A DNA stretch of 25,180 nt, taken from the IMG/VR virus record IMGVR_UViG_3300046171_000301; one strand, 5' to 3'. Origin of the DNA: an uncultured virus (IMG/VR IMGVR_UViG_3300046171_000301) (taxonomy: Duplodnaviria; Heunggongvirae; Uroviricota; Caudoviricetes). The notes below the pieces were generated by a model. It had not been told where the DNA came from. It saw nothing but the letters and a program-made list of their open reading frames with translations, and did not search any database. A program made the position numbers and the translations under genes. Each line of letters begins with the position of its first letter. Position 1 is the stretch's first letter. Of this stretch, positions 3,401 through 21,224 are shown in pieces.

Positions 3401-4549
3401 TCAATATACGAATGAGTAACCAACGGTGATGAAGTCCTTATTCAGGATTTCAAAACCAGCAAACAAGGACCAAATCATGATGATAAAACGGCTAAAATCG
3501 TCGTTGTTATTCAGCAAGATCTGAGCATTGTTTCCGCCGATGCCCACACCCACAGCCTGAGGTCCAAAGAAACAAAGTTGAGACATGTCGTAGTCAGCAG
3601 CGCCTGCAGCGGCGTCGGTAATCACGAGGTTTTCGTTCTTCTCAGGAAGGTTGGTTGATTCGAACCAGCGGACGCCTTCAAACAGGAAGCCAGTAGGCAT
3701 CACAGGTTGACCAGCCACAAAACCAGCCTGACCATATGCGGGACCCATACCTTGGTAGAAATTGGCATTAGGTGCAGCATTAGGCTGCATGGGGTTGATC
3801 ATGCCGCTACCGGGGTAACGTGCGATCTCCCTGAAGTCAGCGTTCTGACGCAAGTGCATCATTGCGGTGGGGTCCACGATGCAGCGGTAGTAGCCGTCAG
3901 CAAATGTGGGGACATTGCGCTTACGCATATCCTTAACGACCTCCAGGAGGTCAGTAGTCACGTCGAACTTGGCAGATTCGCCAGCTGCATAGGTGACGCC
4001 ATACACGCCGCCTGAGCCGCCCTTGGCTTTGCCACCGGGCAGGTAGTAGCCACCCTGTTCGGATGAGGCTTGGCCATTGCCATATGCTTTAAGCAGTTCG
4101 TTAGCAAACACACGATCGCGCCACCGGCGGTAGTCATCCAAAAGTGTAAGTGAACCAATGCTTTGGTGGAAGACGTTTAAGTTGCCTGTATCCAGCAGCA
4201 GACGCTGAGCTGTGATCAGGGTCTCACGAGCGACCTTGAAAGTAGAAGGCTGTGCAGAATCACGTGTATCGGCGGGGCCGGTGTATTCACGCAGGGTCAC
4301 GAGGACCTTGTCCTTCACAATGTTGCGGGCAGAAGCTGTACCAAGGGTTTGGTCGGCTGTCCGCTCACGGGACTCCTTAGTGCCAGGCTTGCCCCAGAAG
4401 CGGTACCTATCTAACTGAACAGTTTGACCAGGTTGCTTGCTGAAGTCATGCACGACCACCGGTTCCACGGCCATCTCAATGATGTAAGCCGGGTGGGGAC
4501 GATACAGTTCTGCACCAAGAAGCTTCGGAAAATCATTATCAATCCACAT
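3401..4549 (-). CDS. Major capsid protein (HK97 fold, N4-gp56-like)
   Basis: 382 aa with segments DFSKQPGQTVQLDRY, YYRCIVDP, FEGVRWFESTNLP, FFGPQAVG and DDFSRFIIMIWSLFAGFEIL, which resemble N4-gp56-type capsids. GGAG RBS, GC-rich codons, and followed by a decoration-like gene and a terminator. Confidence 0.85.
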   Translation of the reverse strand: MWIDNDFPKLLGAELYRPHPAYIIEMAVEPVVVHDFSKQPGQTVQLDRYRFWGKPGTKESRERTADQTLGTASARNIVKDKVLVTLREYTGPADTRDSAQPSTFKVARETLITAQRLLLDTGNLNVFHQSIGSLTLLDDYRRWRDRVFANELLKAYGNGQASSEQGGYYLPGGKAKGGSGGVYGVTYAAGESAKFDVTTDLLEVVKDMRKRNVPTFADGYYRCIVDPTAMMHLRQNADFREIARYPGSGMINPMQPNAAPNANFYQGMGPAYGQAGFVAGQPVMPTGFLFEGVRWFESTNLPEKNENLVITDAAAGAADYDMSQLCFFGPQAVGVGIGGNNAQILLNNNDDFSRFIIMIWSLFAGFEILNKDFITVGYSFVY

Positions 4550-6146: not shown

Positions 6147-7106
6147 TTAAATGTATTCAAATACTTTCTCACTTCGTACAACTAATTCTTTCAGGGCTTT
6201 CCTTTCTAACGTCCTTACACGATCTCTACTCATATTAAGAATTTGACCGACAGCAGTCATTGACATTGGTTCTACAACATCTTCACCAATTCCATATCTC
6301 ATCCGAACAACGGATGCTTGCATCTCTGGTAACTCCTTAATCAGCTCTCTCATATCTTCTTTAATACAGCTTGCAGTCAAAAGATCATCAGGTAGTTGGC
6401 TTTCATCTTCAAGAAGGTCGATAAGAGCTGTGTCACGGTTTTCCCCTATTTTTATTTCAAGGGATGTAGGCTGACGAGCCTTACACATAAGATCTTTAAT
6501 TTCATCTTCAGACAGTTCTAGACATTCAGCTAGCTGACTGACTGTAGGCATAAATCCATTGAGCTGAGATAGTTCTCTTTGTGCTTTTTTAAGCCGGTTT
6601 AGGTTCTCAGTTACATGAATTGGTAGTCGTATTGCCCTACTCTTTTCTGCAATGGCACGGGTGATGCCTTGGCGAATCCACCAGTAGGCGTAGGTTGAAA
6701 ACTTGTACCCACGACCTGGGTCAAACTTTTCAACCCCTCTTACAAGCCCAATGGTTCCTTCTTGGATTATATCTAAGAGCTCCATATTTCTCTTAGTATA
6801 TTTTTTTGCAATGCTTACAACGAGGCGTAAATTTGCTGTGACCATTTTGTCTTTTGCTTTTTGGCCAGCGCGAATCTCTCTCGTTAATTCCTTCCTATCG
6901 AAGTCGAAATATAATGCTAGCTCTGTATCATCAATAGTGCGATTATGTTCTTCAATCAACTCTTTACGTTTATCTTCGATTTCCATCAACCGCTGCACTT
7001 TACGGCCTAGCAGAATTTCTTCATCATGCTCTAGTAAAGGAATGCGGCCAATGTCACGAAGATACGCTCGAACACTATCACCTGTGTGCTTAACTGCAGT
7101 TGTCAT
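6147..7106 (-). CDS. rpoD: Phage-encoded RNA polymerase sigma-70 factor, cyanobacterial group-2 (RpoD-like) type
   Basis: Region 1.2 DSVRAYLRDIGRIPLL; region 2 ANLRLVVSIAKKY...DIIQEGTIGLVRGVEKFDPGRGYKFSTYAYWWIRQGITRAI; region 3 IRLPIHVTENLNRLKK; region 4 SRDRVRTLERKAL. Region 1.1 is absent. Confidence 0.95.
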   Translation of the reverse strand: MTTAVKHTGDSVRAYLRDIGRIPLLEHDEEILLGRKVQRLMEIEDKRKELIEEHNRTIDDTELALYFDFDRKELTREIRAGQKAKDKMVTANLRLVVSIAKKYTKRNMELLDIIQEGTIGLVRGVEKFDPGRGYKFSTYAYWWIRQGITRAIAEKSRAIRLPIHVTENLNRLKKAQRELSQLNGFMPTVSQLAECLELSEDEIKDLMCKARQPTSLEIKIGENRDTALIDLLEDESQLPDDLLTASCIKEDMRELIKELPEMQASVVRMRYGIGEDVVEPMSMTAVGQILNMSRDRVRTLERKALKELVVRSEKVFEYI

Positions 7107-7124
7107 ATCTACCTTGCTTATTTA

Positions 7125-7727
7125 TTAAATATAGTCCATATGTTGCACGCCTGTCAACTTATCCTGTACAGAAAATTGTAATTTAGAGTCTTTCTTTTTG
7201 GGTTTATGTGTGCATTTACCTGTAACCATGTCAATATTAATTTCTTTAGGCTCAGCATCGCCCATCACATAATCTCTTTCAATATAAATAGTGTTGAATA
7301 TGTCTAGGTCTTTGTAAAAAAATCTTTTTATAGAACGGTCTCTGTTATAGGACATAACTGTATTAGTAGTAGCAGCGTGGTCCTTTGGATGTCCAAGACC
7401 TAGGGCATGGCCTAATTCATGAATTACAGTTGAATCGTAGTGATCTCCAATAACAGTTTTTAGTTTCCAAACTCGGTTATCAGGATGCCAAGACGCATTT
7501 CCTAGAATGTTGCCATAAAGACCTTCTACTGTTTTAACTCTTTTGCTACGAATTTCGGCTTCTTTTTTTAACTCTACTCTTTCGAAGTTAATGCCGAGGT
7601 CTTTTTCTAATTCATCTACTAATACTGGGAAATAATCAGATTTTTTATTAGCCCACCATGTAATGACACCATCATCGTACATTGGGATACTTGCATAGCC
7701 CATCCAATCAGCTATTAACTCATTCAT
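7125..7727 (-). CDS. Metzincin zinc metalloprotease (matrixin/M10-like)
   Basis: HELGHALGLGH (HExxHxxGxxH) followed by a Met-turn, TVMSYN. Confidence 0.88.
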   Translation of the reverse strand: MNELIADWMGYASIPMYDDGVITWWANKKSDYFPVLVDELEKDLGINFERVELKKEAEIRSKRVKTVEGLYGNILGNASWHPDNRVWKLKTVIGDHYDSTVIHELGHALGLGHPKDHAATTNTVMSYNRDRSIKRFFYKDLDIFNTIYIERDYVMGDAEPKEINIDMVTGKCTHKPKKKDSKLQFSVQDKLTGVQHMDYI

Positions 7728-8596: not shown

Positions 8597-9646
8597 TCAA
8601 GCGTCTTGAATCAGCATTTTGGCCTGCAGAGCACCTTGAGGAGCTTGTTGCAGGTACTGCCAGGCTTGCTCAGGGTTCTGATCCATCAGCTGGCTAAAGT
8701 CGCCCCAGAAGCTAGAAGATCCTTGACCCTGACGATCGCCAGGTGTAGGCATATCCATGGTAGGACGTTGGAAGTTTGATGGAACTTGGCGCTGTTCTTG
8801 ATCCAAGATTTCCTGCTCAAACTGTGCACGTGATTCTATCTGCTGACGCGCTGCCATTTCTTCATCCGTTTCAGTCGGATAAGGGCCTTCAGGACCAAAG
8901 AAATCGTTTACATAATCAGCGAGAATATCAGGATCTGTCAGCATGATGTTCATAGCTGCACGCTCTTCGCCTGCTGCATCAAGCATCAGATTCATATCGT
9001 TGGCACGCTGCACTTGCTCGATTAAAGCGTCTTCAACGGCACATGAGTACTGATTAAGCAGGGCAGGGGCTTCAGCACCGAAGTGTTCAAGAACTTCAAG
9101 ACTAGTATCAGAGATCTGGCTCAGATATGCATCAGGAGCGCTTGCGCTTTGACCTTGGCTTTGCAGTTGGTCTACCAGTTGCGCTTGCTGATTGCTCAGC
9201 AACTGCTGGACTTGCTGCTCCGAATAAGCCGGGGTTGAAGCTGGGGCTAAATAAGTCTGCTGCGCCTGTTGGGAAGGCATTTGGGGTGCCGCCTGAGAAG
9301 CCCACGCCGCCTGGGTACTGACCTGAGGTGTCGGTGTCTGGTAAGCCGAGGACGGTACCTGGGCTTGGTATTGGCTGGGCGAATTCAGACTTGCGGAAAG
9401 AGCCTGGAACGCTGTTTGCCATGGGTTGGCCGCTTGCGCTGGTGTTGCCGCCGAAGCCTGCGGGGCCGCCGCTGTTTGGTAACCCTGGGGCTGCGGCGCT
9501 TGTGTTTGTACCGCTGCCTGAGGTGACGCCTGGTAGGTCGACGGCACGTTCATCGCGGGTTGGGAGGCCGAGCTCGGAGCGACGCTTGTCTGCATCGGAG
9601 AGCTTGTCTGGCCTACTGTCGCTACTGCTTGGTTTGTACCTTCCAC
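8597..9646 (-). CDS. Putative capsid scaffolding protein
   Basis: GTG start with AAGGAG 10 nt upstream. Q/A/P/S-rich disordered N-half and acidic helical C-half. Lies between portal and MCP, with GC-rich codons like the MCP. Confidence 0.65.
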   Translation of the reverse strand: MEGTNQAVATVGQTSSPMQTSVAPSSASQPAMNVPSTYQASPQAAVQTQAPQPQGYQTAAAPQASAATPAQAANPWQTAFQALSASLNSPSQYQAQVPSSAYQTPTPQVSTQAAWASQAAPQMPSQQAQQTYLAPASTPAYSEQQVQQLLSNQQAQLVDQLQSQGQSASAPDAYLSQISDTSLEVLEHFGAEAPALLNQYSCAVEDALIEQVQRANDMNLMLDAAGEERAAMNIMLTDPDILADYVNDFFGPEGPYPTETDEEMAARQQIESRAQFEQEILDQEQRQVPSNFQRPTMDMPTPGDRQGQGSSSFWGDFSQLMDQNPEQAWQYLQQAPQGALQAKMLIQDA

Positions 9647-11414
9647 TGTAACTTAACTCCTTACGTAAAAATTCTAATGATCGATATAAGAATCCCGTGA
9701 TATCGAGATTTGGATCAGACGCTAATGGTAAGTTTGGCGTCTGTGGATGTGGTAGCGAGTACAGACTGCTCAATAGGCCTATAAACGCATTCAAAGATTG
9801 CTGTGTTTGTTGAACCATCCTAAACGGATAGCCGCTGAGCATTGCTGCCCTCTCTTCGTCAGTCTTACTTGGGAAGAGATATTTCAAGGCTTCAATTGAA
9901 TCGACGCCCAGTTCCTGAAGATTTCTAACGACAATACTGTTATTTAGAATGTCTTGTGAATCGTCTTCAAAAACTTCGCCCATCCAGCGCCAAGAAACTT
10001 TTGTACTGCCGTCTGGGATTAAGCCAACTACTCCTGGGGGAATGTTGCCTGATTCAAGTGTAGCACGGAACAATTCTTCTCTCTTAGAGAGATACTTCAT
10101 TTGAAGCTTTTGATATTTAAGAAGCTCCGCTTGATATGCTTCTTGATCATCGGTAAACTGTTCTTCTAGAGGAATCTTAGGCTTCTCTAATCCAACCGCT
10201 TGTGCAAATGACTCTTCAAACAAATGCTCTTCGTGCACAATAATCATAGAGAGTAGCTTGCACAGTCCAAAGGTAAATAAAGATCTAGCCTTTTTTTCTG
10301 CTGTAGCAGCAACTCTTCCGTACAAGGTTTTAATCTCATACGCTGTAGAGGCGAGATTAAAGTCAATATCGTCTACTCCACCTAATGCAAGACGAATTTC
10401 AGACCTATATTGCTTGACATACATATTTTGATCACCAGAAACACTATCAGGTGTCATATATGAAACACGATCAGTTGGCTCTAGGTTGGCGATAACTCGG
10501 GGAACTTTGATCTGCCCATCTAGAGGAGAAGCACCACCAAATGGAGCGCTGTTGCGAGAACTACCACGCTCCGGAGAATAGAATCCGGCAGAAGAACTAA
10601 TGGTTGGCCTGAAGGGCTGCTCTTCACCACTCTCTACAATGTCATGTTTTGGACGACTAGAAACAAGGGTTGGATTTCCAAAGAACTTCATGTTCTTACG
10701 AATGTTTCGCACAAGATCATCGTGATACATGATCTGATTGCTAATCCAATCAAATTCACCCCGACCAGTTGCTTGACCAGTGCAATTTAAGTGATTAAAT
10801 ACTTCAACAGCAGGAATGAACCCTAAGCTATTTGTGAGAATCTCGGTATTGCCAGGTTGTGCCATGTTTGGCATGCCTGTTCCTTCATCCTCAAACTCAA
10901 TTTTTTCGTTTGAAATCAACTGTTCAATACGGTCCTTGTAGACCTTTAGACGAATATATTTTTTCTTGCCTCCTCTAGCTCCTGGATTACTAAAGGAATC
11001 TACAAGAGAAGGTTCTTTAACACTAAAGTTGTAGATTAAAACAACGCTTTCAATTTCTCCATTTTGATCTCTGTAACATCTATAGCTATCTTTTGGGAAA
11101 TACAATAATTGATATGAATCACCTGATGGTCTGAAATAAAATAAACCTTGACCATCGCAGAGGAAGTAATCGACAACACTGTCGAGCTTCATCTCAAGCA
11201 TATTGTCTTCATAGATCTTCTCTAGAAACTCTTTTCGTTTCCCGTAAGAGTCTTGATCACAATAAAACTCGATTCCACGACGAAGCACAAATGTCCGCAT
11301 CTGAGAAAGATGCGAAGCGACAATCATTGTATCTACAGGCAAATCGCCTCTACGCTCTTTTGCGGCGCTTAGGATTTCCGAAAATTGATTATTGGTACCA
11401 GGTGAATTTGACAT
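9132..11414 (-). CDS. Portal protein with a long low-complexity C-terminal extension
   Basis: 760 aa, two genes downstream of terL. Portal-like segments NSLGFIPAVEVFN, GRGEFDWISNQI, NMKFFGNPTL, IKTLYGRVAATAEKK, KVSWRW and SIEALKYLFP. Confidence 0.82.
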   Translation of the reverse strand: MSNSPGTNNQFSEILSAAKERRGDLPVDTMIVASHLSQMRTFVLRRGIEFYCDQDSYGKRKEFLEKIYEDNMLEMKLDSVVDYFLCDGQGLFYFRPSGDSYQLLYFPKDSYRCYRDQNGEIESVVLIYNFSVKEPSLVDSFSNPGARGGKKKYIRLKVYKDRIEQLISNEKIEFEDEGTGMPNMAQPGNTEILTNSLGFIPAVEVFNHLNCTGQATGRGEFDWISNQIMYHDDLVRNIRKNMKFFGNPTLVSSRPKHDIVESGEEQPFRPTISSSAGFYSPERGSSRNSAPFGGASPLDGQIKVPRVIANLEPTDRVSYMTPDSVSGDQNMYVKQYRSEIRLALGGVDDIDFNLASTAYEIKTLYGRVAATAEKKARSLFTFGLCKLLSMIIVHEEHLFEESFAQAVGLEKPKIPLEEQFTDDQEAYQAELLKYQKLQMKYLSKREELFRATLESGNIPPGVVGLIPDGSTKVSWRWMGEVFEDDSQDILNNSIVVRNLQELGVDSIEALKYLFPSKTDEERAAMLSGYPFRMVQQTQQSLNAFIGLLSSLYSLPHPQTPNLPLASDPNLDITGFLYRSLEFLRKELSYSGRYKPSSSDSRPDKLSDADKRRSELGLPTRDERAVDLPGVTSGSGTNTSAAAPGLPNSGGPAGFGGNTSASGQPMANSVPGSFRKSEFAQPIPSPGTVLGLPDTDTSGQYPGGVGFSGGTPNAFPTGAADLFSPSFNPGLFGAASPAVAEQSASATGRPTAKPRSKRKRS

Positions 11415-11436: not shown

Positions 11437-12546
11437 CTAGCTTTTGTAGCTCTCAGCGGTCTTTGCAGGATCAAATTCATTTTGTTTAGGCGGTTTGACT
11501 GGATTCCAATTAGGGAGTTGGAAGTTAAAAGTATCACCCAGTTGTTTATAGAGTTGTGCGTCAGCTAGATCTGAGTAGTAATCAGGAGCTGCATTAGTGG
11601 TATTAGTCAAATCTGTAATTCTTTCAGTAGCACCTGTTAGTTTCTCAGCTTGTTTAATAGCATCATTTGCTCGACCTGAGCCACTCATCATATCTTGTGA
11701 TTTTTGGTAGTTCACTTCATTAAGACCTCCGTATGCTGCAGCTGATGCCATATTGCTGAGATCGTTTCCAGCTGATCCTGCAATGTTGACACTGTAGTCT
11801 CTAATGTTTTGAGATAAGTCAACTTGACTATTATTAATGTTACCTGCAGATGGTCCTGTGAAAGTCCTGTCAAAACTGTCACCCGTCTCGACCTTACCGA
11901 CTATTGATGGAGTCGGGGCTGGGGTGGGAGTTGGTGCTGGAGCAGGAGCAGGCGCTGGTGCAGGAGCAGGAACAGGCGCTGGTGAGGGCGTTGGAGTTGA
12001 TGGGTCAGTGTTTACCACTGGCTTTGATTCATCTCCAGATTCAGTAATGTCTGTCACCTGAGTTTTAGGATTAACTTCTTGCAGACGCTTGTTGAGCATA
12101 TTTTGAGCCAACCCGCCAGTTTCAACATTTTGATTTTTTAGATATTTATTAATCTGCTTAGCGCTATAGCCTCCACCTTCTTTACTCGTCAGGAATCTAA
12201 TATCTTTTTTATTGATTTTGTCATTACCTAAACTTGACGGATCATATTGCTTCAAACTTGCAGGCGCTTTTACTCCTTTATTAGCAGCTTCTCTTTTTGC
12301 TAATTTCGTTTGATGTTGATTTCTTGTAACTTTATTCTTATAGCCATCGTTTGTATCATCGTATTGTTTCATTCCGGCTTCTGATTTATTGCTCTGAATT
12401 TTCATGTCTGAAAGTGGCGTCGAGCCGTCAGCTTCTGTGGCGTTGCCAAGTCCCATTTGCTGTGCTTTATAACTTGCTTTGCCGCCAGGATTCTTTTGTT
12501 TAAATTGTTGCTTCTCCTCTACGGACAACTCTTTCCATTTTTTCAT
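11437..12546 (-). CDS. Hypothetical virion protein with a Pro-Ala linker
   Basis: About 370 aa: basic N-half, (PA/PT)n linker and Ala/Ser-rich C-half. Start is ATG 12546 or GTG 12549, with TACAAT at 12576-12581 upstream. Confidence 0.75.
   Translation of the reverse strand: MKKWKELSVEEKQQFKQKNPGGKASYKAQQMGLGNATEADGSTPLSDMKIQSNKSEAGMKQYDDTNDGYKNKVTRNQHQTKLAKREAANKGVKAPASLKQYDPSSLGNDKINKKDIRFLTSKEGGGYSAKQINKYLKNQNVETGGLAQNMLNKRLQEVNPKTQVTDITESGDESKPVVNTDPSTPTPSPAPVPAPAPAPAPAPAPTPTPAPTPSIVGKVETGDSFDRTFTGPSAGNINNSQVDLSQNIRDYSVNIAGSAGNDLSNMASAAAYGGLNEVNYQKSQDMMSGSGRANDAIKQAEKLTGATERITDLTNTTNAAPDYYSDLADAQLYKQLGDTFNFQLPNWNPVKPPKQNEFDPAKTAESYKS
11908..11997 (-). repeat. Degenerate 6-nt tandem repeat encoding a Pro-Ala/Pro-Thr linker
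   Basis: Translates to PTPSPAPVPAPAPAPAPAPAPTPTPAPTPS. Confidence 0.85.
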
Positions 12547-12554
12547 CACTGGGC

Positions 12555-14093
12555 CTAAGAATCAAAACTATCACTATTGTAATCAACTTGCAAAGAACCT
12601 CTTCTCAGTAATCCACCAATTGTTAATACCATTGAGTCGACAGCATCATCGTGTGAAGCATGACCAAAGTTTAAAAGCTCTTCCTCTAAAACATCCCATT
12701 TTCTCCATTTGTTCCATACAATTTTTCTATGCTCATATAGTCCCAAGATTCCCCTTAGTCTTGCCAGTTTGTCGCCTCTAAAGCCTTTGACTGGAGAAAT
12801 TGCAAGGTTATACAAAGAACGATCTTCAAACATTATCCGTTTGAAATCACCTTCAAATGATGTTTGATATGCTACAGCTTCTGGCCAGATAACACAATGA
12901 GATGCTGTTGGAAAATATTGTCCATCTTCATTTTCAATAAGAATGTGCCAATCAGCAAGCATTTCACATAGAGTATCCATCTTTTCAATATTCCCCATAG
13001 ACCTACATCTTCTTTGATCAATCAAATAAATTTTGCTGTCACGAATTCCAGCAAGTGTAAATACAGTCCAGTCATTCTTTTCGCTTAAGCCTGCGCTAAG
13101 GTCAATCCCAACGCCAATGCAGTCATATTCATCAGGTACTTCACCGTGGATCAATAGATCTGGTGAAATGCCAACATCACTTGACTGCACTGCAGTATTT
13201 AAATACTGATAAGCAAAAGCCACCCGATCTTCTGCTTTACGCTCATTGAGATATTTCATTGACCAAAATTCAGGCCAATATGATCTTGATCTACCTTCCT
13301 CATCCGTTATTACTGCCTTCTGTACGATTTGTCTCCAGTTATTCTTTGGTACAAATAGCGTGGAGTGAATATCGTCAAAATGGAACCGGGTTCCCAAACA
13401 GATGGCTCTTGCCCCTTGAAACATCGTAGGTGCGATAACGTTTGACCACGTTGCTTCCATTTCACGCCGTATATCCGGGTTGTTGATGGCCGCAGCGGAT
13501 TTAATAGGGTCATCGATAAGTACCAGTTGCGATCTTTTCGAAGTGATCGCACCCTTGAGACCACCACACGCAATGGTAAACGCCTCTTCACCTGCTGTAT
13601 CAATACCCGCAAATTCATAGTCGATACTCCAGTACTCGTCAGATCTTTTTATTTTTGACAGACGTACCATTGGGAAGATTTCCCTATATTTTGCACTCGA
13701 TAAAATTCCTTTTATAGTTGCTGACTTGGCTCTACTAATGTCCACCATGTAAGCGATGTAGAGTATTCGCAGCATTTTCTTGGCAGCTGCATGTCTTCCA
13801 ATCATCCAAGCTGCAAACAAACCAAGGACAGTGCTTTTTGCAGAACCACGGGGTGCGAGGATCGATGTGTTTGGTCCCCCTACGCCTAATAGACATTCGC
13901 TGTCCTCTCCTGTACAAAGTTCATTGTGCCACTCCAGCATGTGCTTAGCGGGAGCCTTTCCCATCACTTTGCAAAATGCATGGAAGTTTTCGCGAGCCTC
14001 TATGACTTCCTGCGTAGGCGGCTTGCTTGTGACTTTTGTCGCAGTCATCAAAGCACTGCGCCTATAAGCTAATGATGCACTTGCAATTGCCAT
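12555..14093 (-). CDS. terL: Terminase large subunit
   Basis: Walker A APRGSAKST, Walker B LVLIDDP, coupling motif LGTRFHFDD, and RNase-H-like nuclease motifs VGIDLS...DWTVF and HDDAVDS. Confidence 0.95.
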   Translation of the reverse strand: MAIASASLAYRRSALMTATKVTSKPPTQEVIEARENFHAFCKVMGKAPAKHMLEWHNELCTGEDSECLLGVGGPNTSILAPRGSAKSTVLGLFAAWMIGRHAAAKKMLRILYIAYMVDISRAKSATIKGILSSAKYREIFPMVRLSKIKRSDEYWSIDYEFAGIDTAGEEAFTIACGGLKGAITSKRSQLVLIDDPIKSAAAINNPDIRREMEATWSNVIAPTMFQGARAICLGTRFHFDDIHSTLFVPKNNWRQIVQKAVITDEEGRSRSYWPEFWSMKYLNERKAEDRVAFAYQYLNTAVQSSDVGISPDLLIHGEVPDEYDCIGVGIDLSAGLSEKNDWTVFTLAGIRDSKIYLIDQRRCRSMGNIEKMDTLCEMLADWHILIENEDGQYFPTASHCVIWPEAVAYQTSFEGDFKRIMFEDRSLYNLAISPVKGFRGDKLARLRGILGLYEHRKIVWNKWRKWDVLEEELLNFGHASHDDAVDSMVLTIGGLLRRGSLQVDYNSDSFDS

Positions 14094-19524: not shown

Positions 19525-20706
19525 TTATTGCAAATTACTATTATCAGAATTCATTAAATTATCTGCGTTATTACGCCTACGCCGTTCTTGCTCCAAAATA
19601 TTGCCTGCGATTTGGCCAGCAACTAAGCCAGTCATTCCACCGACAAAGCCACCACGTATAGGTCTTGATGTTCGTACACCAGCAGCTCCGCCTGCTAATG
19701 CACTTAGATACGGGACTACACCTGTAGTAACAGGGAGGCTTCTACCTAAGAACTGCATTTCAGGTCCATGAATGCCCTCGTCAGTGAACTTCAGTGCGCC
19801 AGCACCGATCGTCACATCTCCGTCTAGCGGATTCCAGTCTTCTTTTTTGTCATACTTAAAGCCTTTATATCGTCCATACTCTTCTGGAGATACATCAGGT
19901 CGTACCTTTACGAACTCGTTATACGGAAGAAGATTGCCCGTCCTGCCCATGATGTACTTAAGGCCCACTTCACCAACTACATTTGAAGTCTTGGTTGGAT
20001 CTTCATCACTAGGTAATGCTGCATAATATCCTTCAGCTCCACCAAATGGTGTCAATAACCCTAACCCTGAGTTGATGGCAACCCCTGTAGGTATAGCTAA
20101 TGATGCAACATGTCCAGGCTCAAAATTACGCTTCATTACAACAGCATCATCACCTTCACCATCAATTGAATAACCGCGTTTTAGGCGCTCCTTGCCGTTC
20201 ATCTTTTTAGTGATGCCTAATGCTTTCTGCGCTTGCTTATCCTTAGCCCTTAGTGGTTTATTGTTGTAAGTATTAGTGACAACTGATTTGCCATAAAGAT
20301 TAGGGTTTGCTTTGGCAAGCACAGCTTCATTGATTACATTGCCTGCGGCCTGTAAAGCATTTAATAGCCAGTACACGCTACGAGTAGTGTCTTGTGTTAA
20401 ATCAGATGCAACTGTTCCTACCCTTTGACCAAAGCGCTTTGCTCCTGTATCCATCATGCCCATGTCTAGCTCATTACGAGCTTGAACATAATTAGGGTCT
20501 GCCATACCCAAGGCTTCTCTTGTTCTATAGATCGTTGGATTGGTAGCCAACATAGAAGTCATGCGTGGCGCTTCTTTTTGCTTACCTTGAAGCTCACGAG
20601 CACGATAGAAACCCATTTGCTCATCTTCTCGGCCTTTGCCGTAGTCATTGGCAAAGCCTTCGCCAAACTCACTTAAGATATTTTTTATTCGCTGCAGCCT
20701 ACTCAT
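19525..20706 (-). CDS. Putative internal virion/ejection protein (393 aa)
   Basis: Start revised from 20847 to the ATG at 20706 (MSRLQRIKNILSEFG), which is TAATG-coupled to the upstream stop. Gly-rich hydrophobic C-terminal segments. Confidence 0.75.
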   Translation of the reverse strand: MSRLQRIKNILSEFGEGFANDYGKGREDEQMGFYRARELQGKQKEAPRMTSMLATNPTIYRTREALGMADPNYVQARNELDMGMMDTGAKRFGQRVGTVASDLTQDTTRSVYWLLNALQAAGNVINEAVLAKANPNLYGKSVVTNTYNNKPLRAKDKQAQKALGITKKMNGKERLKRGYSIDGEGDDAVVMKRNFEPGHVASLAIPTGVAINSGLGLLTPFGGAEGYYAALPSDEDPTKTSNVVGEVGLKYIMGRTGNLLPYNEFVKVRPDVSPEEYGRYKGFKYDKKEDWNPLDGDVTIGAGALKFTDEGIHGPEMQFLGRSLPVTTGVVPYLSALAGGAAGVRTSRPIRGGFVGGMTGLVAGQIAGNILEQERRRRNNADNLMNSDNSNLQ

Positions 20707-21224
20707 TAGCCAATACCACCAGTGCCTAATCCGCCAGGGTTTAAATAGTCGGTAGACCTTGGATAGAGCAACCCATGTTGTGCAAGTATCTGTTGCTCCA
20801 GTTCTTGTGCAAACCTCTCTTGATCCTGACGACCCATTTTCTCCCAAGGGGTTTCCCCTGATCCTCCCATTAATTTATCTTTGGCTCTAAGCACTTGCTC
20901 TGAAACAGGGATTGAGCCGTATCCGCCTCCCACACTGGCAATCATATCCACACCACTTGCAATTCCGGGCTTCCCTAGAAATGGGCGGGATGCCACTAAG
21001 CCCGTGCCTGCAGACATGCCAAAGTCAGTTAATCCTGTCAGTAATTTATCTCCAAGATCTCCAGGTGTTTGAGACGCATTTACAACAGCCATGGTGCCGT
21101 CCATTCCCAGCCTTAACCCTAATTCAGGAATAGAAGCAGCTACACCCTTCTTTATTGCACCGGGATTTCTTCCTAATAAATATTTGAGAGCTTGAAGACC
21201 TTTTGTACCTGCCATTCGAATCAT
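20706..21224 (-). CDS. Gly-rich hypothetical virion protein with N-terminal RMAG
   Basis: 172 aa, ATGA overlap with the upstream gene. Confidence 0.75.
   Translation of the reverse strand: MIRMAGTKGLQALKYLLGRNPGAIKKGVAASIPELGLRLGMDGTMAVVNASQTPGDLGDKLLTGLTDFGMSAGTGLVASRPFLGKPGIASGVDMIASVGGGYGSIPVSEQVLRAKDKLMGGSGETPWEKMGRQDQERFAQELEQQILAQHGLLYPRSTDYLNPGGLGTGGIG

Follow-up and report, generated by a model that had tools for sequence, protein, structure and literature searches.

The analysed DNA is a stretch of 25,180 nucleotides (nt) from an uncultured virus of the Caudoviricetes (IMG/VR record IMGVR_UViG_3300046171_000301), called the window below, and its source phage is a marine cyanophage. 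On the minus strand of the window two long open reading frames (ORFs) are open over the same DNA, out of frame with each other: the end of ORF A, which encodes a portal-like protein, is also the beginning of ORF B, which encodes a scaffold-like protein (Table 1). Judged from the sequence, this overlap is a genuine and ancient dual-coding region that was left unannotated. ORF B is read in the +1 frame relative to ORF A and its GTG begins at the second base of portal codon 590, three codons 3' of a B-frame TAA (9653-9655). The core of ORF A extends to about residue 590, and past the B start its frame runs on for 171 codons, giving a tail rich in S (15%), G (15%), P (12%) and A (11%). The arm of B coded by the same DNA (residues 1-171) is composed mostly of Q (22%), A (21%), S (14%) and P (11%), and the ordered-looking part of B starts at DAYLSQIS (9110-9133), adjoining the portal stop. 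The guanine-plus-cytosine (GC) content was 0.608 in the overlap, with a peak of 0.655-0.665, versus 0.409 where only A is coded, 0.492 where only B is coded and 0.427 in the whole window. No tandem repeats were found within the overlap, and promoter-like and terminator-like sites did not exceed the shuffle level. The original prediction had described a same-strand overlap of 515 nt (9132..9646) with B in the +1 frame from GTG 9646 in portal codon 590, an AAGGAG ribosome-binding site and an in-frame TAA upstream of it, a portal frame open for ~171 further codons to a basic end, an ordered domain of B beginning about the portal stop, and a very GC-rich composition. All of this was reproduced.

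Table 1. The overlapping gene pair, its motifs and two neighbouring head genes (positions are those of the window).
Feature	Position	Strand	Remarks
ORF A, portal-like protein, 760 amino acids (aa)	9132-11414	minus	ATG 11414 to TGA 9132-9134
ORF B, scaffold-like protein, 349 aa	8597-9646	minus	GTG 9644-9646 to TGA 8599-8597
Dual-coding stretch, 515 nt	9132-9646	minus	portal tail in frame 0, B arm in frame +1
AAGGAG Shine-Dalgarno (SD) of B	9657-9662	minus	within portal codons K585-E586, 10 nt 5' of GTG
GTG start of B	9644-9646	minus	in portal codons S590-G591 of motif ELSYSG
Conserved short helix of B arm, NPWQTAFQALSASL	9386-9427	minus	residues 74-87; P75, W76, Q77, A79-L83 invariant in 53 sequences
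Portal-tail motif PIPSPGTV	9351-9374	minus	residues 681-688; P683, P685, G686 invariant
Portal-tail motif ADLFSPSFNPGLF	9222-9260	minus	residues 719-731; N727, P728 invariant; D720, S723, S725, F726 at least 90%
Basic portal C-terminus RPTAKPRSKRKRS	9135-9173	minus	ORF translation
Large terminase subunit gene	12555-14093	minus	phrog_38, E 3.3e-67
Major capsid protein gene	3401-4549	minus	phrog_1357, E 9.5e-19

From the 130 relatives that the IMG/VR search yielded, 80 were retained, and together with the window and Synechococcus phage S-EIVl they made 82 sources. Ten of these end ahead of the portal stop and are not assessable. A +1 overlap of 446-554 nt was present in all 72 assessable sources of the window's clade plus S-EIVl, and the B start was GTG in 71 of them and ATG in S-EIVl. 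A profile of 53 portals was run against 1.84 billion representatives and found 363 proteins at E <= 0.001 (clustered at 50% identity), among them proteins of 690-840 aa and others of 558-606 aa. Two alignments of distant portals (A3, A4) fetched 160 further loci; among these the portal runs off the contig in 23, no more than 110 nt are left past the portal stop in nine, and no portal was recognised by pattern in ten. In each of the 118 assessable loci a +1 ORF overlaps the portal end, by 266-662 nt. The layout is shared even by distant relatives with short portals (575-604 aa, L162-L168) at about 26-30% identity, where the overlap with B is 266-356 nt.

Taken together, both frames are open in 190/190 assessable loci (166 unique overlaps), from 242 sources. 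The original prediction had advised checking whether both frames stay open in homologues, and they do, with overlaps of 266-662 nt at every assessable locus. No relative without the overlap was present among the loci found, and the overlap appears to be as old as the whole portal family found here, which has 2215 database homologues from contigs up to 87 kb.

The chance of openness was calculated exactly, with one protein fixed and synonymous codons drawn from flank usage. Given the B protein, the A frame would be stop-free with a probability of 5e-4 in the window (median 5e-4 over 62 unique relatives). Given the A protein, the B frame would be stop-free with a probability of 0.11 in the window, and the medians were 0.055 (flank usage) and 0.03. 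Equal-length control stretches beside the overlap gave median openness probabilities of 3e-5 and 2e-7. Across the 62 unique overlaps the third sense frame carries 2-11 stops and the antisense frames carry 5-16, 0-5 and 3-8 stops, with one antisense frame stop-free in 4/62. Composition aids openness, yet it is insufficient once the relatives are counted, since both frames stay open in all 190 diverged loci at a chance of 5e-4 to 0.06 per sequence.

These numbers bear on the possibility that only B is functional and that the portal tail is a tolerated read-through, open because a Q/A/P/S-rich arm yields few stops in the -1 frame. When the codons are drawn according to the usage of the overlap itself, the portal frame would be open, given B, with a median probability of 0.025 and a maximum of 0.17, and the portal stop falls just where the composition of B turns ordinary. 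Both are as this possibility would have it. Against it stands the openness of the portal frame at every assessable locus, across clades at 26-45% portal identity.

In the single-coding flanks the parsimony changes per site at codon positions 1, 2 and 3 were 5.1, 3.0 and 12.6 for the portal and 4.9, 3.3 and 13.2 for B. In the overlap the pattern is flattened, with 5.4 at B position 1 (portal position 2), 7.4-7.7 at B position 2 (portal position 3) and 8.8-9.1 at B position 3 (portal position 1). The peak at the third position of B is again what would be expected if B alone were functional. Ratios of nonsynonymous to synonymous changes (N/S) were obtained by a pairwise count that divides changes by their effect in both frames, using 400 of the 653 eligible pairs in the window's clade and 250 sampled pairs in each of two replicate clades. 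In the window's clade the ratio was 0.55 (0.46-0.63) for the portal frame and 0.44 (0.37-0.52) for the B frame, against 0.78 and 1.32 for fake +1 and -1 frames. The replicate clades gave 0.54 (portal), 0.47 (B), 0.81 (fake +1) and 1.75 (fake -1) for L082-L161, and 0.60, 0.35, 0.72 and 1.45 for L169-L241.

In all three clades the ratios of both frames were lower than the calibrated nulls. Several points nevertheless temper the selection signal on the portal tail. The N/S estimator is biased low, and a simulated neutral frame on the window's overlap gives 0.75-0.80 (95% range 0.65-0.93) and not 1. For the S-EIVl-like clade the interval of the portal frame (0.47-0.73) reaches the null range obtained by simulation (0.66-0.92), and the alignments used for selection span low-complexity sequence with insertions and deletions. 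Because a neutral frame would already give 0.75-0.80, the portal-frame signal is real but moderate, and a ratio only moderately under the neutral expectation is one more point in favour of B as the single functional reading.

The divergence at 4-fold sites is a check independent of the N/S estimator. For the portal frame it was 0.512 (0.478-0.541) outside the overlap versus 0.247 (0.203-0.286) inside, and for the B frame 0.514 (0.483-0.546) outside versus 0.360 (0.308-0.413) inside. The original prediction had suggested looking for suppressed synonymous variation, and in this measure it was found in both frames. Differences that are silent in B cause portal replacements with a mean BLOSUM62 score of 0.92 versus 0.48 expected (confidence interval (CI) of the difference 0.27-0.64), while the control difference was -0.03 (CI -0.14 to 0.08). 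Differences that are silent in the portal cause B replacements with a mean of -0.79 versus -1.27 expected (CI of the difference 0.33-0.62), with a control difference of +0.09 (CI -0.05 to 0.23). The lowered divergence at sites silent in B and the bias of B-silent changes to conservative portal replacements, which the control lacks, both argue against a portal tail that is mere read-through.

The two frames take turns along the overlap. At portal residues 600-629 (LSDAD..R..LG.P.RDE) the variation is highest at the portal third position. At residues 660-674 it is highest at the B third position, where B has the invariant NPWQ.AFQAL helix, and at residues 675-689, which correspond to the portal motif PIPSPGTV, both frames are tight. 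Purifying selection is found in both frames, with a stronger signal for B than for the portal tail. The overprinting of two disordered arms, one of the explanations offered originally, is supported by it together with the general openness of both frames.

The portal tail also has conserved features of its own. Distant portal relatives, among them those of 558-606 aa, also have the PIPSPGTV-type motif, and a strict P.PG[STAGV] is present in 141/166 unique portal tails. The counterpart of ADLFSPSFNPGLF in other clades is ADL..QPG[LI]L.QLFP.F, and at least four K/R are found among the last 15 residues in 160/166 unique tails. These three features (P.PG[STAGV], the ADL..P..G[LI][LF] or QLFP.F motif, and the basic end) are kept down to 26% identity, and where the B frame is variable P.PG[ST], ADL..P..G and the basic end are still retained. 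The synonymous codons of the portal frame are nearer to flank usage than those of the B frame in 58 of the 62 overlaps, although these overlaps are not independent of each other. Codon usage and the depth of the motifs are weak evidence that the portal tail may be the older reading. With selection and motifs added to openness, we consider it improbable that B is the only functional product.

The opposite possibility is that only the portal tail is functional, that the true start of B is close to the portal stop or beyond it, in line with the GenBank annotation of S-EIVl (133 aa), and that the openness of the B frame is a by-product. The chance openness of B given the portal (median 0.03-0.055) and the S-EIVl record, which annotates L001:5306-5707 alone, are in agreement with it. 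In the window, however, no start codon of the B frame lies near the portal stop, and the first in-frame Met further on comes at about residue 225, which already belongs to the conserved domain. The halved divergence at portal-silent 4-fold sites, the B-frame ratio of 0.35-0.47 versus a neutral 0.72-0.81, the invariant motif NPWQ.AFQAL inside the overlap and the 672 database proteins that cover full-length B speak against it too.

The start site of B is the other obstacle to this possibility. AAGGAG lies 5' of the B start in 45/45 unique start contexts, and in the window's clade it is invariant at a distance of 10 nt. The segment AAGGAGyTAAGTTACAGTGGA is invariant at portal-synonymous positions in 44/45 unique contexts (the spacer of S-EIVl differs), and within the window's clade these 21 bases are fixed even where they are portal-silent, while adjacent portal codons vary freely. 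At the B start the portal codons encode the motif EL[ST]Y[ASG]G. Most loci of other clades have an ATG here that arises from the codons for EL[TS]Y[AG]G in the portal frame, and in the short-portal forms the start arises from those for NLNYG. In L123, L124 and L166-L168 the first B start codon lies elsewhere than in the portal motif. Across clades the start is nearly always one or two codons past a B-frame stop. We consider it very improbable that the portal tail alone is functional.

The duplex energy with a generic anti-SD was -8.55 kcal/mol at the B start versus -3.61 at the portal start (n = 50), and such a strong SD would allow B to be made in excess over the portal. Translational control of the portal:scaffold stoichiometry, another of the explanations first offered, may apply and fits only one observation, the strong invariant SD of B versus the weak SDs of portal starts. 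No conserved RNA structure that would explain the invariance of the start site was detected around the B start (consensus -1.5 kcal/mol, 0/7 pairs covarying).

In tailed phages, some long overlaps of genes on the same strand serve for frameshifting, for example in the tail chaperone pair G/GT. Programmed frameshifting could here join the two frames, either as a portal-scaffold fusion or by B shifting into the portal tail, and +1 shift sites, which have no simple signature, lie beyond a pattern search. The canonical X XXY YYZ heptamer occurs in the B frame in 0/62 unique overlaps, and homopolymers of at least six occur in 3/72. The Rfam search gave no element but a chance snoRNA match (E 0.65) elsewhere in the region, and no conserved structure was seen at the junction. 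B has its own conserved SD and a start right after a stop, and selection spans the whole overlap in both frames. A -1 frameshift pair of the G/GT type was rejected on the missing slippery heptamer and the start that B owns. The fusion considered in the original prediction found no support, as the B start is conserved at the same portal site, and frameshifting in general is slightly less probable still than a functional tail without B.

A false frame extension by an assembly or sequencing indel, the other concern raised at first, has a next to negligible probability and can be ruled out, because the architecture is repeated in 190 independent loci and because two runs of separate studies gave contigs that align to 9110-9658 gap-free where they cover it (X1 at 8886-9241 and 9212-9658; X3 at 9110-9242 and 9275-9513). 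The contig of a related strain (run X2) lacks 3 nt and, elsewhere, has gained one base and lost another 5 nt away (9292, 9411, 9416), and these changes restore both reading frames beyond two codons. A contig from an RNA library (X21) of a relative spans 9297-9723 and was not taken as evidence of expression.

Like a portal gene, ORF A is situated in the head module beside the large terminase and its product is within the size of ~500-800 aa. The terminase gene lies two genes upstream in the window, and 215 of the fetched loci likewise have a terminase in their upstream flank. ORF A matches phrog_20475, "virion structural protein", with E 2e-176 over residues 10-733, and the named Atlas clusters closest to it, four in number, are portal families (score 0.96). 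No Pfam hit was obtained with the window's ORF A protein. Weak hits to PF05133 were obtained in 7/16 distant relatives (best E 2.6e-4), and among 13 family members one matched PF05133 and one PF12236 (E 0.1-0.19). When a 42-sequence profile of ORF A was compared with PDB, seven of the ten best matches were portal proteins, with a best E of 0.02. That the similarity to known portals is so weak, with E no better than 0.02 in PDB and 2.6e-4 in Pfam, counts against the assignment. The name "portal" was partly borne out, by weak but concordant sequence evidence and by synteny; in all likelihood ORF A encodes the portal protein. Between the terminase and portal genes the window carries an ORF of 370 aa (11437-12549, minus strand) with a (P-A/P-T) repeat stretch. 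This stretch coincides with a patch of GC 0.53 (11800-12099) and an open antisense ORF (11837-12061), and it is a second low-complexity, stop-poor patch.

The AlphaFold2 model of B had a mean predicted local distance difference test (pLDDT) score of 51. Residues 1-73 and 89-142 are without structure, helices are predicted at 75-88 and 143-163, and 185-348 is predicted as helical, including a 45-residue helix. The DNA of residues 74-87 reads GQPMANSVPGS in the portal frame, and its variation is highest at B codon position 3. A Trp is present in the B arm in 164/166 unique overlaps. B lies between the portal and capsid genes, which is the position of a scaffold gene and is seen also in the short-portal clade; the capsid gene starts within 200 nt past the B end in 15 loci, at 201-1000 nt in 27 and at more than 1000 nt in two. 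In relatives, either nothing or one small gene stands between B and the capsid gene. Weak Atlas leads of B (0.82) point to the scaffold families PF05396 and PF09306. A fold search of BFVD with the B model gave a single match at E <= 0.001, a 133-aa protein with 28% identity that is probably the truncated B of S-EIVl.

Other results weigh against B as a scaffold. It has no match in Pfam or PHROG families, and no PDB sequence match was found. The model is of low confidence, and its fold matches are long helices of a generic kind (Z up to 5.2). B and the capsid gene of the window are separated by seven ORFs of 90 aa or more, of which five are on the minus and two on the plus strand. Extra genes were inserted downstream of B in the window's clade, among them a sigma factor in 58 loci and a 222-aa ORF in 43. 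The B of the short-portal clade aligned with that of the window's clade at an hhalign probability of 14.7%, so the homology of B between these clades is positional only. The scaffold name given originally stood in part, with gene position and predicted helices for it and no scaffold family matched. From position and helical prediction, we think that ORF B is probably a scaffolding protein. For 118 of the 120 best full-length B proteins (P0271-P0390) the longest contig was <8 kb, which suggests that gene callers report full B only where the portal gene is cut off.

Two genes downstream of B were observed in passing. The sigma factor of the window (6147-7106, minus strand) is of the sigma-70 family with regions 1.2, 2, 3 and 4 (phrog_351, E 1.4e-79), and it is placed inside the head block between B and the capsid gene; it was found in the downstream flank of 58 window-clade loci and in no flank of the other clades. 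Also downstream of B, at 7125-7727 on the minus strand, a protein of 200 aa is encoded whose zinc peptidase domain resembles matrixins (PF00413, E 6.2e-7) and includes VIHELGHALGLGH. This protein was found in five related loci only and might be a putative head-maturation protease.

We consider it very probable that one DNA stretch carries two independently started and selected readings, and we infer that both proteins are made. Ribosomes that start at the portal ATG (11414) would read to the TGA at 9132 and give the 760-aa portal with its low-complexity tail of 171 residues. Other ribosomes would initiate at the SD and GTG (9662-9644) in portal codons 585-591, in the +1 frame, and give the 349-aa B, which would consist of the 171-residue Q/A/S/P-rich arm with the short helix NPWQxAFQALSxSL and then the helical domain. 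The flexibility of both arms would let the stretch serve two proteins under purifying selection, and the overlap may be tolerated because both arms are flexible.

We can go further and speculate, though this is rather unlikely, that the overlap goes beyond compaction and is a functional coupling device of head assembly, which combines an interior portal-tail module, so far unrecognised in this family, with a portal:scaffold ratio fixed by ribosome traffic. The portal tail with its three family-wide motifs and basic end would then reach into the procapsid and hold DNA, scaffold or core proteins. The strong start of the scaffold inside the portal frame would set the portal:scaffold ratio through ribosome traffic, and the two arms would be forced to co-evolve because they share DNA.

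The only relative in the phage collection is Synechococcus phage S-EIVl (KJ410740.1; AHV82224, 767 aa, and AHV82225). Its portal-like protein is 44% identical to that of the window over residues 10-736, and its B is 32% identical over residues 178-348. As in the window, the portal-like ORF, here of 767 aa, overlaps an ORF in the +1 frame, here of 325 aa; the shared stretch is 554 nt long (59287-59840 of the record, L001:4730-5283). The portal motif at the start of B is also the same, and an AAGGAG precedes it. Unlike in the window, the start is ATG and not GTG, and the capsid gene lies one small gene past B. The GenBank record has B from L001:5306 only, which is its last 133 aa, and the overlap is not annotated. 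Also in this phage, an intact ORF of 383 aa (L001:6302-7453, plus strand) has 67% identity with the major capsid protein of the window. In its place the GenBank record gives a minus-strand coding sequence (L001:6227-6988) and a short plus-strand one (6983-7453), and the capsid gene looks mis-annotated.

Among tailed phages, spanin genes (lambda Rz/Rz1, T7 18.5/18.7) are arranged with the second gene in the +1 frame of the same strand and with its own internal start. They are lysis genes with far shorter overlaps, and in lambda one gene is wholly inside the other, whereas in the window ~500 nt are common to the 3' end of a head gene and the 5' end of the gene after it, and both parts are long flexible arms. 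In lambda C/Nu3 and Mu I/Z, head-assembly proteins, a scaffold among them, share DNA beside the portal gene by an internal start within an upstream head gene. These nested head genes are in the same frame and their products share residues, but here the frames differ and no sequence is shared.

The overprinted genes of small viruses are alike in that one DNA stretch encodes two proteins (phiX174; Rancurel 2009, Willis & Masel 2018, as cited in passages of PMC8227390). According to the same passages they have biased composition, a disordered look, GC-rich and stop-poor sequence and suppressed synonymous variation, as here. The present case is unlike them in its large genome (about 80 kb in S-EIVl), its two core head-assembly genes as partners, and an overlap as old as the portal family found. 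Because the genome is large, coding economy would be a weak motive. Overlaps of >50 nt are annotated in 61% of double-stranded DNA virus genomes, and the largest overlap common to several families is 185 nt, as stated in PMC7017920. No earlier description of a portal-tail/scaffold-like overlap was found in literature listings and abstracts, a coverage outside which the paper describing S-EIVl falls.

Tailed phages rarely have long out-of-frame overlaps for which there is evidence that both products are under selection, and this one involves two core head-assembly genes. The portal family that carries it has thousands of environmental members (2215 homologues, 363 clusters at 50% identity). Because gene callers mis-annotate the locus systematically, as with the 133-aa B of S-EIVl, the head-gene catalogues of abundant marine and freshwater cyanophages are wrong at this place. 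The overlap is a natural case for how two disordered arms share one sequence, and it points to conserved portal-tail motifs. As S-EIVl is a cultured phage, dual coding is testable in it.

A further overlap was noted in the window. The minus-strand ORFs at 19525-20847 and 20706-21224 overlap by 142 nt if the downstream one uses a TTG start, and this is probably an over-extended start.

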